A DNA stretch of 64,000 nucleotides from Candidatus Poribacteria bacterium (GTDB taxonomy: Bacteria > Poribacteria > WGA-4E > WGA-3G), in the NCBI GenBank assembly GCA_965205015.1, contig OZ242029.1, positions 192,001-256,000 on the forward strand, given 5' to 3'. Both the position numbers and the translations under genes were made by a program. Of this stretch, positions 10,335-16,191 are shown one piece after another (within the stretch, counting starts at the first letter, position 1; every line of letters starts with the position of its first letter). A model generated the notes under the pieces. It saw nothing but the letters and a program-made list of their open reading frames with translations, searched no databases and had not been told where the DNA came from.

Positions 10335-10363
10335 TTGACATTTCGATCCGAAAATGCTATCCT
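10335..10363 (+). promoter_or_regulatory. Sigma70-type promoter
   Basis: TTGACA-17 nt-TATCCT, upstream of AAAGGAGG RBS and ATG at 10386. Confidence 0.65.
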
Positions 10364-10385
10364 ACACATCAAAGGAGGACGCAGA

Positions 10386-11759
10386 ATGGCAACTTTAACA
10401 CAGACCGAGAACCAAATCAGACCGCTGTATATTGACGGATACACACACCAACTCAGTTATGTTCCCGGCGAAGAAATCGCGTTCCACATCTCAACGAGTG
10501 CAGAAAATTATTCGCTTGAGATCGCTCGTATCGGGGCGACGCGCGAGGTCGTCTGGCGTCAAGCAGAACTCCCCGGTGAAGCACAACCCATCCCCGCAGA
10601 TGCGTCATCGCAGGGATGCGGATGGTCTCCCATCTTTACGCTCGAAGTCCCCGAAACGTGGCAGAGCGGCTATTATGAAGGCACACTCCGTGCAACCGAT
10701 GGTGGGGGTGGCCACGTTTATAGGAATCAGCGCACGGCTGAAAGCACGCTCTTCTTTATTGTCCGTCCTGCGAAACCGGGAGCAAATACACCTATCCTGC
10801 TCCAACTCTCTACGAACACCTATAACGCATACAACAACTGGGGAGGCTTCAGCCTCTACGGGTATCACGGAGCAAGCAAGATACAGGGAAACCGCGTCTC
10901 GTTCGATCGACCTACGCGCGGTATCTGCAGTAACTGGGAATTGCCTTTTATCGTCTGGGCAGAGCAGAACGGATATACACTCGACTACGCCGCGAACTCC
11001 GACTTGGAATTCCACCCTGAAATATTAGAACATTACAAACTCGTCTTGAGTGTTGGGCACGATGAATACTGGTCTGCCCCGATGCGCGATAACCTTGAGG
11101 CATTCATCGCCAACGGCGGAAATGCCGCCTTCTTCAGCGGGAATTCCGTCTGCTGGCAGGTCCGCTCCGAAGATGACGGCAGAGCCCTCGTCTGCTGGAA
11201 GCAAACCTATAACCAAGATCCAGTTTTCAAGACTGATGATTACAGTACCCTCAGCACACTCTGGAGCCACTATCTCGTAGATCGTCCTGAGAACCAGTTG
11301 ACCGGCGTAGGCTTCCTTCAAGGCGGTTATCACCTGAGTCACGGTCAATTTATGGACGGTCCAGGGGAATACACCGTCCATCGTCCAGAACACTGGATAT
11401 TTGAAGGCACAAACCTCTCGCGAGATGATACCTTCGGCGGCGAAAACACCATTGTCGGTTACGAATGCGACGGATGCGAGTGGACCCTCGTAGACGGTTT
11501 GCCGGTCCCGACCTATCAAGACGGCACACCTGAGGGCTTCACGATCCTCGCGACGGCTCCCGTCCGCTGGCATCCCGACGACTGCGAATGGTATGAACGC
11601 TGGGAAAGAGGGAGAACCGGTGCCGCAACGATGGGCATCTATACGAAAGACGGGACCGTTTTCACTGCCGCTACAACCGACTGGTCACACGGCTTGGCGG
11701 GTGGCGACGCGGTGGTTGAACGCATTACGCACAACGTCCTGCGGCGGCTCACAGGATAA
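10386..11759 (+). CDS. N,N-dimethylformamidase beta-subunit family (DUF6605-like) protein
   Basis: TYNAYNNWGG, VSFDRP, SVGHDEYWS and VGYECD motifs; start chosen from the RBS. Confidence 0.8.
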   Translation: MATLTQTENQIRPLYIDGYTHQLSYVPGEEIAFHISTSAENYSLEIARIGATREVVWRQAELPGEAQPIPADASSQGCGWSPIFTLEVPETWQSGYYEGTLRATDGGGGHVYRNQRTAESTLFFIVRPAKPGANTPILLQLSTNTYNAYNNWGGFSLYGYHGASKIQGNRVSFDRPTRGICSNWELPFIVWAEQNGYTLDYAANSDLEFHPEILEHYKLVLSVGHDEYWSAPMRDNLEAFIANGGNAAFFSGNSVCWQVRSEDDGRALVCWKQTYNQDPVFKTDDYSTLSTLWSHYLVDRPENQLTGVGFLQGGYHLSHGQFMDGPGEYTVHRPEHWIFEGTNLSRDDTFGGENTIVGYECDGCEWTLVDGLPVPTYQDGTPEGFTILATAPVRWHPDDCEWYERWERGRTGAATMGIYTKDGTVFTAATTDWSHGLAGGDAVVERITHNVLRRLTG

Positions 11760-11770
11760 GTACGCGTTAT

Positions 11771-13290
11771 CAAAACCTCCGAGTCTAAAACCCCCTGCTT
11801 CAGCTGGGGGATACAGACTCGCTTTTGTGGACAGGGCCACGGGGTTATCTGTGAAAATTAATGTGCTTTTGCAGGCAAATCGTGGTATAATGAAAGTATC
11901 GTATGAGGACCGGCATTATCAGCGTTACGGACTTGGGAGCGTGTCGGTTCCACCCACTGAGAAGGGGTAAAAGATGCGATATGCGAGAATCCAGCAATGC
12001 CGAAGTTTCACCGCACCGATATCCTGAAAATAGAACCTCAACCGATATATGCTGAGATCAATGAGGCGTCGGGGTCTGTATGGAACGAGTGTCTCTCTCA
12101 AATGTCAATGTATCAGTGGCACCGTGGGTATCCTCACGCGTGGGACTTTTTCTACTTTGGTCCGGAGTGTGAAGGCTGGATTGATAAAAGGCTTACCAAA
12201 TCCCAACCTTTGCATTCACAAAGTATTCAAGCTGTTCGTGAACGTTACTTTAAATCTTGGGAGTCCTATCGTATTCTGAAAAAGGGTAACCCAACTGCGA
12301 GACCTCCACGGAAGCCGAAACGCTTTTTGACGACCCGTTGGAAAAAATCAGCGATTCGCTTTCAAGACGGCTGCGTCTCTCTGTCAATGGGACTGGGTAG
12401 AGATCGCCTCTGTATCCCTTTGCCTTCCAACTTCAATATGTCCAAAACGGAGCAGATTGCGACGATTGATTTGGTCTACACCTTCGGTCAATGGGAACTC
12501 CATTTCTCCTATAGATACGAGTTGGAAAAGACCGAAACAGGTAAAGGGGTTGTCGGCGTTGATATTGGTGAAATACACCCGATTGTGAGTCATGACGGAA
12601 CAGACACACGGATTTTCAATGGACGGTATATCCGCTCGCTCTATCGCCATAGAAACAAAGTGATTGCCGAGTTCAGTCAAGCCATCAGCCGGTGTAAACG
12701 CCATTCGAAACGCTGGTGGAAACTCACGCGTCGGAAGTGGAAACGTATCAAAAAGATTGACAATCAGCTTAAAGATGCGTTGCATCAACATACCTGTAAG
12801 TTTCTAAAGTATTGCAACCTCAAAGGCATCGGCACGATTGTGCTTGGCGACCTCACCGGTATCCGTCATCGCATTCACTACGGAAAACGTGCCAACCAGA
12901 AACTTCACCAGTGGGCTTTTGGTAAAATCACAGCGTTGCTAACCTACAAAGCGAAGGTGTTTGGTATCAAGGTTGTGCAGATTGACGAGGCCTACACCTC
13001 ACAAACTTGCCCAAGCTGTGGCAATCGGAAGAAACCTACAAATCGGACCTATACCTGCCCCTGCGGGTTCAAATACCATCGCGACGGTGTAGGTGCTATC
13101 AATATCAGAGCAAAGTATCTGGGACACTTTGGTGTCCCCGTAGTGGCGGACATGGACCTGCGAACCATGAAGATGACACCGCCCTTGGGCTTTCGACTGA
13201 AAGTCCCTGTTGCCTCGTCTTAGACGCGAGGAATGTTCCTACAAGGAACAAAAGAACCCCTGGTTTCCTTTAGGCTTGGGAGTATGTCAG
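11771..13290 (+). mobile_element. Non-autonomous IS200/IS605-family (IS1341-type) element carrying tnpB only
   Basis: Left-end hairpin cgagtct-aaaa-ccccc-tgcttcagct-ggggg-atac-agactcg preceded by TTAT; right-end hairpin gaac-ccc...ggg-agtatgTCAG; no target duplication; no tnpA. Confidence 0.85.
11997..13223 (+). CDS. tnpB: RNA-guided endonuclease TnpB
   Basis: LHSQSIQ, RuvC-I GVDIG, IVLGDL, IDEAYTSQTCPSC...CPCG zinc finger, RuvC-III HRDGVGAINI. Confidence 0.93.
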   Translation: MPKFHRTDILKIEPQPIYAEINEASGSVWNECLSQMSMYQWHRGYPHAWDFFYFGPECEGWIDKRLTKSQPLHSQSIQAVRERYFKSWESYRILKKGNPTARPPRKPKRFLTTRWKKSAIRFQDGCVSLSMGLGRDRLCIPLPSNFNMSKTEQIATIDLVYTFGQWELHFSYRYELEKTETGKGVVGVDIGEIHPIVSHDGTDTRIFNGRYIRSLYRHRNKVIAEFSQAISRCKRHSKRWWKLTRRKWKRIKKIDNQLKDALHQHTCKFLKYCNLKGIGTIVLGDLTGIRHRIHYGKRANQKLHQWAFGKITALLTYKAKVFGIKVVQIDEAYTSQTCPSCGNRKKPTNRTYTCPCGFKYHRDGVGAINIRAKYLGHFGVPVVADMDLRTMKMTPPLGFRLKVPVASS

Positions 13291-13310
13291 ATCTCTTTAC
13301 GCTGAAATGA
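13130..13310 (+). ncRNA. Predicted omegaRNA/reRNA scaffold plus flank-derived guide; 5' boundary approximate
   Basis: Inferred from known TnpB architecture: the scaffold overlaps the tnpB 3' end and right end, and the guide follows TCAG. Confidence 0.55.
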
Positions 13311-14735
13311 GACGTGTGCTGCTGCAAATAACACCATGAAAAAGAGCAATAGCAGCATCACGTTCAGAATCGCGCCCTTGAAGGCATCCTCTAAACGCAC
13401 CCGGTCCTGAAATTTAGGCATACTTTCAAAGGGAACGGGCTTATCAGACATGCCTTCTCTAACAAAAGGGATGTGTAGACTGTCTGGATCCGCGCGATCG
13501 GCAGAGATGAGGAAATCATTGAATTCATCGGCATAACGCTCGGCGTTCTTCAAGAAATCCAAATGTCTTTGGAATCCTGTTCCAGCAAGGGATTCGATGG
13601 CATGTTGTGTGACCGCAGTGGGTGAGATCCGATTCACTTCCCTGGCAATCCGAATTTGATTGATTTGGGCACGCAAGAACATTTTATTTAAGCGTTTTCC
13701 CTCTTGAAGTTCTTCATTGAGAAATTCCGCCCACAGCAGTGTTGCTGGTGTTGGTGGATGTTGGCGGGTTGGGGCTTCTTCCTCTAATCCGCGTGCCTTG
13801 TAGCGTTCATAGAGTCCACTACGCGTGAAATGTATAGGGCTCGGTCCCTTCCGGATTGATGGCAAGTTCAGCCCGCTCATAATTGTTCCAAGCATTGACG
13901 GTACGAGGATAACCCAAATTACCCATATGAGCAGCAGAATGACGAGGCTTGTTGAAGGGGTGTTAAGAAGTGTTGAGATGAAAAGTCCTAAGGCGATAAA
14001 GACAGAGATATATATCAAACCTACGACGAAAATACCACCGATTCTGTACCATTCTTGGGTGTCTAATTGCAGGTTTCCAGAGAGATAGAGCAGTAGGAGA
14101 TTCATCAATACCCCGCTCATGAAAACAGCACCGAGGCTAAACAGATTGCTTAGGAATTTCCCAGTGAGCAGCGTTTGACGCGCAACGGAATTTGACAAGG
14201 TCAACCGGAGAGTTCCTTGTGCCATTTCACCAGCAACCGCGTCGAAGGTAAAAATTAGTGCAAGGAAGCTGAGAATGTTTGCAATGATAAGCGTCCAGTC
14301 GATCCTTAAGAAGATTGGAAAGATGTCGGCTGCCCGGATTGGCGGAAAACTGGTATACTTCAATCTCCAGATACCCGAAAAAGGATAGTTTTTCCCATCT
14401 ATAACGGGACTCATACCATAGCCCGCACTCCATCCCAATACAGACGCTGGTAGATTATTTTCACTACCGTGTGCACAGAAAGAGAGTGCGGAGGGTGTCT
14501 TGTAAAGCACGCCCGGCCCGCGGATGACGAGGTTGTAGAACTGACGGCTATCGCGTTCCAGTGCTGTCAAAGCCTTTGAGACGTTTCGCCGATATTCTGT
14601 TTGCTGTATTTTAGACGCGCCTATATGCCCCAAGGCGTTGACGATCATCAAAAAAACAGTCAGTAGCATCGCGAGTGCGAAACGGAGACTGCTGATCTGC
14701 TCAAATAATTCGCGTTTGATAATATACCACAGCAT
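13287..14735 (-). CDS. ABC-2 type transporter permease
   Basis: IIKREL...LRF N-terminus, FDAVAGE..QGTLRLTLSN, multiple TM helices. Confidence 0.85.
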   Translation of the reverse strand: MLWYIIKRELFEQISSLRFALAMLLTVFLMIVNALGHIGASKIQQTEYRRNVSKALTALERDSRQFYNLVIRGPGVLYKTPSALSFCAHGSENNLPASVLGWSAGYGMSPVIDGKNYPFSGIWRLKYTSFPPIRAADIFPIFLRIDWTLIIANILSFLALIFTFDAVAGEMAQGTLRLTLSNSVARQTLLTGKFLSNLFSLGAVFMSGVLMNLLLLYLSGNLQLDTQEWYRIGGIFVVGLIYISVFIALGLFISTLLNTPSTSLVILLLIWVIWVILVPSMLGTIMSGLNLPSIRKGPSPIHFTRSGLYERYKARGLEEEAPTRQHPPTPATLLWAEFLNEELQEGKRLNKMFLRAQINQIRIAREVNRISPTAVTQHAIESLAGTGFQRHLDFLKNAERYADEFNDFLISADRADPDSLHIPFVREGMSDKPVPFESMPKFQDRVRLEDAFKGAILNVMLLLLFFMVLFAAAHVSFQRKEI

Positions 14736-14736
14736 G

Positions 14737-16191
14737 TCATATCTCCTGTCGGCAGAAGACAGCAAAAGCGGTCATAAATAGCACTGGGTTAAGAAGGAAA
14801 AGGAGGAGAAGGTCTGGGAGTGCACGGTTACTGGCATCTCCAGAGACGCTTGGCAGGTGATACGAGAATCGGGGGACATCCGCCCATCGGACACCGCCTT
14901 TATCACTCGCAAACCATTGGCGTGAATTGAACGCCTTTTGGTCGTAAAAATAGCCTAAGAGCGTCTCTCTGTACTGCCGACCTGCGTTGAAGAAGTCTTC
15001 CATTCTGGCGATATCTGTGCCTGCCCATGCCGCGGTTGAGAGTTGATATAAACCTGTAGGTGAAAATCGGAGAACGTTTCGGGCGGTGCGCGATTTAGGG
15101 ATATAGGTTTCAGAAAAGGCTTGCTCTCGGACCCGCCAGACTGCTTTCGCTGTGTTCATCTGCAATGCTGTTATGGTTTCAAAATAGGCTTTCACGGCGG
15201 GGACATCCGGCTCGCTTTCCACCGGAATAGATGTGATCGTCTTACTCCGATGGGTGTAACCGCCATGCCACCCCCGTCCGAGATGCTCAAAGGGGTTCTG
15301 TAACTTTTCTTCCTCGCGATAGAAACGCTCGGCAAGTTGGTCAATGTGTTGATGTGCTTGCGCCATTCTCTCCGACGTATCCATAAAGCGGTTCACAAGA
15401 AATAGGCTCACGTTCGGATAGAGCAACGTCAGTACTACCCAGATGAACATTGAAACAATAAGGGATGTTGCCGTGCGGTGAATTATGCTGGAGATAAGCA
15501 ACCCAATGAGATAGAACGTGGAGGTATAAATAACCGTTGTAAGGAAGATACCTCCGACGCGTAGGAATTCATCAGGGGTGTAATGGATAGCATTGGATTG
15601 AAGTTGCAGCAGGAGTGCCAATAAGAAACTCATTAACAGGGGTAGTGTCAAGCATAACATAGCACCCAAATATTTTGACAATACAATCAAGCCGCGTCCA
15701 ACAGGGTTGACAAGGATTAGGCGTAACGTACCATTCTCGCGGTCGCCAGCGATCGCGTCGTAAGCAAACACCAGGGCAAGGAGGCTTGAAAGAATTTGGA
15801 AGATAGAAACCAGATCTATATCAGCAAGGAGATGTCGGAACGGATTATTGAAGCCGGCACTGCGGTAGACATCCGCCCATAAGAAGGGGACCTCTCCAAG
15901 GCGGATCTGGATAGAATTTCCTGCACGCTTGTCAAGCCCTTGATTGAAGAGACTCAACGGATTCGGGGCTCTGTCAAGAAAGGGCGTAAAATCTGAGTAG
16001 GTTTCCGCACGAGTAGCTCGCTCCTGGTGTTCTTGGACTGCGGCGTTGTAACTCGCAAGCCTTCGTTCATAGTTGTCTGTTAAAACAATGCTGCCCGCGA
16101 GCACAAGGAGGAGATATGAAATCAGGGTTACCAAAAACCGGAACGTCATTAAATTGGTTAAAAGTTCATGTCGAATCAGCGTCCAAATCAC
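14737..16191 (-). CDS. ABC-2 type transporter permease (paralog of the downstream gene)
   Basis: YDAIAGDRENGTLRLIL, multiple TM helices, C-terminal RQEI similar to RKEI of its neighbour. Confidence 0.85.
   Translation of the reverse strand: MIWTLIRHELLTNLMTFRFLVTLISYLLLVLAGSIVLTDNYERRLASYNAAVQEHQERATRAETYSDFTPFLDRAPNPLSLFNQGLDKRAGNSIQIRLGEVPFLWADVYRSAGFNNPFRHLLADIDLVSIFQILSSLLALVFAYDAIAGDRENGTLRLILVNPVGRGLIVLSKYLGAMLCLTLPLLMSFLLALLLQLQSNAIHYTPDEFLRVGGIFLTTVIYTSTFYLIGLLISSIIHRTATSLIVSMFIWVVLTLLYPNVSLFLVNRFMDTSERMAQAHQHIDQLAERFYREEEKLQNPFEHLGRGWHGGYTHRSKTITSIPVESEPDVPAVKAYFETITALQMNTAKAVWRVREQAFSETYIPKSRTARNVLRFSPTGLYQLSTAAWAGTDIARMEDFFNAGRQYRETLLGYFYDQKAFNSRQWFASDKGGVRWADVPRFSYHLPSVSGDASNRALPDLLLLFLLNPVLFMTAFAVFCRQEI

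Follow-up and report, generated by a model that had tools for sequence, protein, structure and literature searches.

The window analysed here is a 64,000-nt stretch of Candidatus Poribacteria DNA (positions 192,001 to 256,000 of the forward strand of contig OZ242029.1, assembly GCA_965205015.1), that is, of a sponge-symbiont genome. Between a gene with a DMFA2_C domain and a tandem pair of ABC-2 permease genes it holds a 1520-bp insertion carrying the gene of a TnpB protein, and we describe this insertion as what is very probably a non-autonomous, tnpB-only member of the IS200/IS605 family with ends resembling those of IS608, moved by a transposase (TnpA) acting in trans. The features on which this reading draws, together with the neighbouring genes, are collected in Table 1.

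Table 1. Features of the element and of its surroundings, in window coordinates. TAM, target-adjacent motif.
Feature	Positions	Strand	Remarks
Whole element, 1520 bp	11771-13290	+	No target duplication, no terminal inverted repeats
TTAT, left cleavage site C_L, predicted TAM	11767-11770	+	Host sequence, not part of the element; a single TTAT remains at the unoccupied site in 4 related genomes
Left-end structure	11780-11821	+	Inverted repeat I1, DNA fold, covariation
Outer helix arms	11780-11786 / 11815-11821	+	Enclose left guide AAAA and ATAC
AAAA, left guide G_L	11787-11790	+	Directly 5' of left hairpin
Inner hairpin IP_L, CCCCC..GGGGG	11791-11810	+	Subterminal palindrome
ATAC	11811-11814	+	3' of IP_L
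tnpB, 408 aa	11997-13223	+	D189, G284, E331, D363; zinc finger C338/C341/C354/C356
Predicted omegaRNA scaffold	13122-13290	+	Stems 13122-13127/13132-13137, 13145-13149/13179-13183, 13213-13217/13227-13231 and 13234-13239/13245-13250, plus right-end hairpin
GAAC, right guide G_R	13254-13257	+	4th base covaries with last base of element
Right subterminal hairpin IP_R, CCC..CC TTTA GG..GGG	13258-13280	+	Family covariation
TCAG, right cleavage site C_R	13287-13290	+	Last 4 bases of element; empty site, flank divergence
Predicted guide, ATCTCTTTACGCTGAAATGA	13291-13310	+	Host DNA after element, antisense to last ABC-2 permease codons
DMFA2_C-domain gene	10335-11759	+	Upstream neighbour of element
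Host ABC-2 family permease gene, 492 aa	13287-14765	-	Pfam ABC2_membrane_2, 4.8e-34; 3' end is the insertion site
Second tandem ABC-2 permease gene	14737-16191	-	Paralogue of the 13287-14765 gene

The limits of the element can be read both from its relatives and from sites that lack it. A scan for protein relatives with one genome per prokaryote species yielded 131 relatives, from which 80 loci were kept for the family analyses (78 labelled Poribacteria and 2 'uncultured bacterium'). In BLASTN comparisons the three closest loci match the window over 11767-13289 (L001, 92%, and L002, 90%) and over 11767-13293 (L003, 81%), their flanks beyond those limits being unrelated to the window, and similarity among the 80 related loci ceases at the same two end points, with flanks that diverge right after TCAG. 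When window positions 10800-14300 were searched against the five genomes carrying L001-L004 and L011, one of these Poribacteria genomes (G001) proved to hold the unoccupied site (L086), which reads ...gtccgcgTTAT followed directly by ATCTCTTTACGCTGAAATGAG and whose flanks are 89% (left) and 96% (right) identical to those of the window. Position 11770 thus abuts 13291 there, in the form ...gcgTTAT and then ATCTCTTTACGC. The orthologous right flank is also directly preceded by TTAT in G002, G004 and G005, where the left spacer has diverged over 12-14 nt, and all four empty sites share TTAT followed by ATCTC. Because the base at 11770 (T) differs from that at 13290 (G), and the base at 11771 (C) from that at 13291 (A), the cut points are unambiguous and the element is 11771-13290. 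Insertion 3' of a short motif, without duplication and with a donor joint that keeps the motif, is one of the features that the element shares with the IS200/IS605 family.

The same limits emerge from two public runs, X1 and X3, which contain 92% and 84% of the sampled window words. Their contigs branch at 11767, where 3 and 2 contigs carry different left flanks, and again at 13290/13291, where 2 and 1 contigs carry different right flanks, and the depth of the element (about 168-174) is some 2.3-2.8 times that of the flanks (about 60-78). Such a pattern agrees with several near-identical copies having inserted at further TTAT sites, with the provisos that contig depth is not copy number and that the copies may be in other strains. 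No further copies of the element were found within the window itself, and an excised joint between 11770 and 13291 was absent from the contigs of X1, X3, X5 and X6, which is uninformative on excision because contigs drop rare variants. A preliminary description of this DNA had derived the same span from the letters alone, and its main statements have held: TTAT, AAAA, GAAC, TCAG and the guide stretch 13291-13310 all lie where it put them, the boundaries that it drew are shared exactly by other copies and relatives (L001-L003, the 80 loci, and the branches in X1 and X3), and the empty-site junction that it predicted, gcgTTAT immediately followed by ATCTCTTT, occurs verbatim in the related genome. 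With the empty site, the 80 related loci and the branch points of the runs in agreement, the boundaries are more than a product of chance. Two further observations were made on the runs over 11300-13800. Extra loose ends at 11809, 13249 and 13280 show the presence in the same samples of family members that share only the left or the right hairpin regions, and a variant that, like L002, has an additional T after 11795 occurs at roughly 1/10 to 1/5 of the depth.

Both ends of the element carry a subterminal palindrome, with compensatory changes across 61 left and 74 right ends of the family. Treated as single-stranded DNA, the left end forms a better fold than its shuffles (z -3.02, equalled by 1 of 200); the right end by itself does not stand out in the same way (z -0.82, equalled by 45 of 200), so that the right hairpin is supported by family covariation and not by energy. 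An iterated profile matched the left end in 60 of the 80 loci, which with the window gives 61 rows, and it also matches right-end hairpins. Across these rows the inner helices are 93.9% and 89.1% paired, and the outer helix, with 75.6% of its cells paired, has changes on both sides in 5 of its 7 pairs. The bases that precede the element are T, T and A in 61 of 61 rows, followed by T in 55, C in 5 and A in 1, and the first base of the element is C in every row. As read from these flanks, the target of the family is TTAT; at position -5 there is a weak preference for T (30/61). An Rfam match of the left hairpin to Hrs1 was well below threshold (20.7 bits against a gathering cut-off of 56.4, E 0.74) and was taken as chance.

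The natural point of comparison for these ends is IS608 of Helicobacter pylori. The right guide of IS608 is GAAT, and one compensated base per end separates that element from the one in the window, AAAG/TTAC becoming AAAA/TTAT on the left and GAAT/TCAA becoming GAAC/TCAG on the right. Both share the general plan of the ends. In the published account of IS608 (PMC3201880, partial text), TnpA does not read its cleavage sites, which pair instead with the tetranucleotide 5' of the respective hairpin; the distance from TTAC to the foot of the left hairpin is 19 nt (20 nt for TTAT in the window), the element ends with TCAA 10 nt after the right foot (10 nt also for TCAG), and ATAC stands 3' of the left hairpin. 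By that published description (PMC3201880, partial text) the two are alike in their subterminal hairpins, in the 4-nt guide 5' of each, in ATAC and in a TTAN-type insertion without duplication. Relative to the published description of IS608, the window copy is without tnpA, encodes a TnpB with a rearranged RuvC-II site and has what may be an extra outer helix on the left.

The preliminary description had used the IS608 pairing rule to predict TTAT and TCAG, and the family bears this out, since the fourth guide base and the fourth base of the cleavage site covary at both ends. A right-end pattern without constraint on the two critical bases gave a call for 73 of the 80 loci, as GAAT/TCAA in 36, GAAC/TCAG in 36 and GAAT/TCAT in one, with no instance of GAAC/TCAA or GAAT/TCAG. 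Visual inspection of the 7 uncalled right ends shows GAAT..TCAA in L051 and L055 and AAAT..TCAA in L057; L036, L059, L067 and L072 are without a recognisable right end. When 74 right ends (70 distinct rows) were aligned with MAFFT, the columns of the guide base and of the last base were paired as U-A in 36 rows, as C-G in 33 and otherwise in 1. The last base of the element has changed at least 9 times on a FastTree phylogeny of the 69 full-length proteins, and the guide base has changed along with it in all 5 of the independent pairs that lie on well-supported branches. On the left (61 rows) the pairs are TTAT/AAAA in 45 rows, TTAC/AAAG in 4, and TTAC/AAGG and TTAA/AAAT in one each, so that sites other than TTAT have the matching guide base in 6 of 6 cases; 51 left ends are concordant by columns, three more (L033, L051, L055) are one column off and read AAAA or AAGA by eye, and 7 are discordant. 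Covariation, as distinct from biochemistry, thus supports a guide tetranucleotide at each end whose fourth base would pair with the fourth base of the cleavage site. Two loci of a single genome, L035 and L038, have a GTAT left guide and still stand 3' of TTAT; tnpA is present in both, split in L038, which would mean either a relaxed rule in this genome or copies that have lost the ability to excise.

A second structured region lies at the other side of the gene. In an RNA alignment of the last 200 nt before the boundary, taken from the 74 right ends, the RNAalifold consensus has 27 pairs, 16 of them with compensatory change, and the cells of the named structure pair in 96.5% of cases, compared with 85.5% in shuffles (0 of 500 reach the observed value) and 39-50% with slid partners. 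The five conserved stems lie upstream of the right boundary and overlap the 3' end of tnpB, an arrangement that fits the scaffold of a putative omegaRNA. Rfam searched over 11000-14000 gave no match above threshold. The model for such an RNA is that of ISDra2, about 150 nt long and ending in about 16 nt of flank past the right end, and the TAM selected from a library for ISDra2 TnpB equals the TnpA target (PMC8612924). By analogy, the TAM of the window TnpB would be the TnpA target, TTAT, and its guide would start at 13291.

That the TAM is not simply TTAT, but shorter, longer or more permissive than the TnpA target (for example TTAY or NTTAT), is unlikely, and of the alternatives that concern single parts of our reading it is the one to which we give the most weight. 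Members with changed guides use TTAC (5/61) and TTAA (1/61), and this is a change in the DNA guide of TnpA and not obviously one in TnpB; the weak preference at position -5 and the measured TAM of TvTnpB, which is 5 nt long (NTGAC; PMC10530073, partial text), point in the same direction. Against it stand the identity of TAM and TnpA target in the ISDra2 library selection (PMC8612924) and the invariance of T, T and A in all 61 left flanks.

The element is filed as a non-autonomous IS200/IS605 member because tnpA is absent from it: none was found in the 226 nt that precede tnpB within the element (11771-11996), nor in the 64 kb of the window, where the best tblastn match has E 0.16. An autonomous member would encode TnpA itself, as some of its relatives do. 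Among the 80 related loci tnpA is full-length in 28, partial or split in 14 and missing in 38; in L022 it occupies 2576-2998 (Y1_Tnp, 1.1e-37), between the left end and tnpB. The window element shares with L001, L002 and L003 a common short form without tnpA, found at four different sites, and tnpB-only members are recognised in the IS200/IS605 family (PMC8612924; PMC10691335, partial text). The similarity of 11932-11950 to 13275-13293 (15/19, CTTGGGAG..GTC.G) was considered as a pseudo-right-end left by the loss of tnpA and set aside, as it is at chance level and other listed pairs score alike.

The ends of the element do not share one history. In the right-end module (13254-13290), 36/37 positions agree with L011, L012 and L030 and only 27/38 with the closest relatives, L001 and L002, while the 154 nt that precede it are identical to L001 at 147 of 154 positions and to L011 at 130 of 160; the TnpB proteins of L011, L012 and L030 are 74% identical to that of the window. 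By type, the left hairpin belongs with L001 and the right one with L011. Judged from these alignments, the element is chimeric at its ends, its right-end module coming from a different sub-lineage than the rest.

Both the missing tnpA and this mixture of hairpin types could be taken to mean that the element is a stranded relic, with intact ends and an intact open reading frame but without a compatible TnpA, immobile, and with a TnpB preserved by recent ancestry alone. We regard this as quite improbable. In X1 and X3 the element including its chimeric right end (13212-13290, depth 183) is connected to no fewer than two other flanks on each side, and the raised depth points to several near-identical copies, under the limits given above for depth and strains. 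The form without tnpA occurs at four different sites, and tnpB is under purifying selection, with a ratio of nonsynonymous to synonymous substitution rates (dN/dS) of 0.10-0.13 between the window gene and six relatives.

The 408-aa open reading frame announced in the preliminary description is present, and its product has the domain architecture of TnpB, a RuvC core with a zinc-ribbon/TNB domain. It matches the Pfam families Cas12f1-like_TNB (PF07282, 5.6e-23) and OrfB_IS605 (PF01385, 2.6e-13), both above cut-off, the NCBIfam model NF040570 guided_TnpB ('RNA-guided endonuclease TnpB family protein') with 195.9 bits against a cut-off of 100, and the PDB sequences 8bf8, 8exa and 8h1j (E 2.4e-10). 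An AlphaFold2 model built on a 51-row alignment (predicted local distance difference test, pLDDT, 74.4; predicted template modelling score, pTM, 0.47; residues 362-408 below 50) was compared by Foldseek to known structures and matched AsCas12f (2e-18), ISDra2 TnpB (8h1j, 2.6e-17) and Fanzor2 (7e-11), with probability 1.00 to Cas12f/TnpB structures. TnpB of ISDra2 (Deinococcus radiodurans) is likewise 408 aa long and has the same domain order, and the expected origin of its omegaRNA (reRNA), a flank-derived guide and the equivalence of TAM and TnpA target would also be common to both (PMC8612924), at an identity of about 15-19% in the Foldseek alignments.

The two proteins differ in the active site. 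The M-E-D-L-T motif of solved Cas12f structures aligns with L-G-D-L-T in the window protein, and Gly284 is therefore at the position of the canonical RuvC-II glutamate. The 81 proteins of the family comprise 69 full-length members and 12 that are truncated or have stops; D189, E331, D363 and the cysteines C338/C341/C354/C356 are invariant in all 69 full-length members, 68 of which have Gly at position 284 and one Ser. E331 lies 47 residues past G284, in I-D-E-A-Y-T-S-Q and right behind a predicted strand (325-330). This combination, a Gly in place of the RuvC-II glutamate and an invariant alternative Glu, is that of a rearranged site. Branches with a RuvC-II Glu-to-Gly change (RIIr), in which an alternative Glu was modelled to compensate, were described by Altae-Tran et al. 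(PMC10691335, partial text), and in the TnpB2 proteins of Jiang et al. the Glu is replaced by G or P and an alternative one stands some 45 residues away, as in active Fanzors (PMC10530073, partial text). In these respects, and in an IS605-type Y1 TnpA with left and right ends (LE/RE), the window family is like TnpB2/RIIr and Fanzors (PMC10530073 and PMC10691335, both in part). By its residue pattern the window TnpB is of the rearranged TnpB2/RIIr type and not of the ISDra2 type, the latter having a canonical D-E-D triad and a 5-nt TAM (TTGAT) where the window protein would have D189, a relocated E331 and D363 with a 4-nt TTAT. An archaeal protein of the same type, TvTnpB of Thermoplasma volcanium, is active and TAM-specific (NTGAC) without collateral activity (PMC10530073, partial text). 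Unlike TvTnpB, the family described here is bacterial (Poribacteria), was assigned to the type by residue pattern, and has a predicted TAM, TTAT, as opposed to a measured one. A search of the open PMC subset and bioRxiv found no paper that treats TnpB and Poribacteria together.

From these resemblances we infer that the protein could be a programmable nuclease, as the preliminary description had proposed. It is very improbable that the element is as delimited here and its TnpB no nuclease but a protein that, in the manner of nuclease-dead TnpB derivatives, binds or represses under RNA guidance. In favour of this are the Gly that replaces the Glu of Cas12f M-E-D-L-T, its fixation in the family and the low confidence of the modelled RuvC C-terminus. 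Against it, three acidic residues are invariant, and the offset of E331 matches that of the compensating Glu located some 45 residues further downstream in active Fanzors and TvTnpB (PMC10530073, partial text) and in modelled RIIr TnpBs (PMC10691335, partial text). The gene also belongs to a mobile element whose ends are intact and which has several recent copies at different sites, and it is not immobilised beside a regulated target, as an exapted derivative would be.

Insertion has been silent for the host protein. The gene of the adjacent ABC-2 permease ends in ..GAG ATC TGA in the window and in ..GAG ATA TAA in the empty sites, in both cases ..E I and stop, and the final base of the Ile codon and the TGA stop come from the element (they are the complement of TCAG); the host protein is unaltered. 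Its tandem paralogue, with which it overlaps by 29 nt, also ends in ..EI. In another Poribacteria genome a CRISPR-like array of at least 19 repeats (repeat of about 37 nt, period 72-78; L062, 1-1400) precedes the left end of a family member by about 1.5 kb.

Our preferred interpretation, a tnpB-only element at 11771-13290 that follows a peel-and-paste cycle through a TnpA supplied in trans and through cutting of the donor site by TnpB and its omegaRNA, is very likely to be correct. It builds on an identity, exact limits, a target motif and an anatomy of the ends which the comparisons above establish, as they do the purifying selection on tnpB and the conserved, structured 3' region. In this cycle, a Y1 TnpA of the kind encoded by full-length relatives would excise and insert the top strand ('peel and paste'), its cleavage sites being chosen through the pairings AAAA:TTAT and GAAC:TCAG. 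TnpB would bind an omegaRNA derived from the 3' end of tnpB and the right end and extending into the flank, with a guide from 13291, and the complex would then cut the TTAT-flanked empty donor site, into which the element would be copied back by recombination.

Several observations weigh against this interpretation. With no tnpA in the element, it must be moved in trans, by a TnpA which we assume to be present in the host organism, and it is likewise assumed that one TnpA handles both an L001-type left and an L011-type right hairpin. The position-4 rule is broken in 7 of the 61 left ends, namely L040 and L060 (TTAT/AAAG), L035 and L038 (GTAT), L021 (ACAT), L070 (AAAC) and L076 (guide deleted), and in one right end (L043, TCAT). 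A sign test on the 5 independent pairs reaches p = 0.0625 only. At the right end, moreover, guide and cleavage site are separated by no more than about 35 nt and belong to a module that lineages exchange, so that block transfer may explain some of the co-change; it does not explain all of it, because L018 and the loci L024, L028 and L029 have identical hairpins and yet differ in both the guide and the last base. In TnpB the canonical D-E-D triad is incomplete, D189 and D363 being present and RuvC-II having G284, and the structural model, which is only moderate, is too uncertain in the RuvC C-terminus to place E331 in the active site. Finally, no sigma-70-like promoter was found in 11600-13500 where 2.1 were expected, a result that is uninformative for the Poribacteria phylum.

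A wider reading joins three propositions: that this TnpB is a bacterial, mesophilic nuclease of the 'TnpB2' kind whose TAM is the 4-nt TTAT, possibly without collateral activity; that the outer helix of the left end is a switch which, as DNA or as leader RNA, hides the guide AAAA and the ATAC needed by TnpA and so regulates excision; and that guide-plus-hairpin modules have been swapped between lineages and are still functional. As a whole, we hold this to be rather unlikely.

The present understanding of IS200/IS605 elements is left unchanged by these results, and the window element is an ordinary, cleanly delimited member of a well-understood kind. What it demonstrates is that a decoding of such an element from sequence alone, including its ends, its target motif and the start of its guide, can be right to the base. 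It also provides a verified example with an empty site and, in its relatives, a natural data set for the TnpA pairing rule, with some 60-73 ends that include compensated changes. For the Poribacteria, the analysis brings to light an abundant family of rearranged-site TnpB proteins, maintained by selection in uncultured sponge symbionts, whose members are candidates for compact editors.

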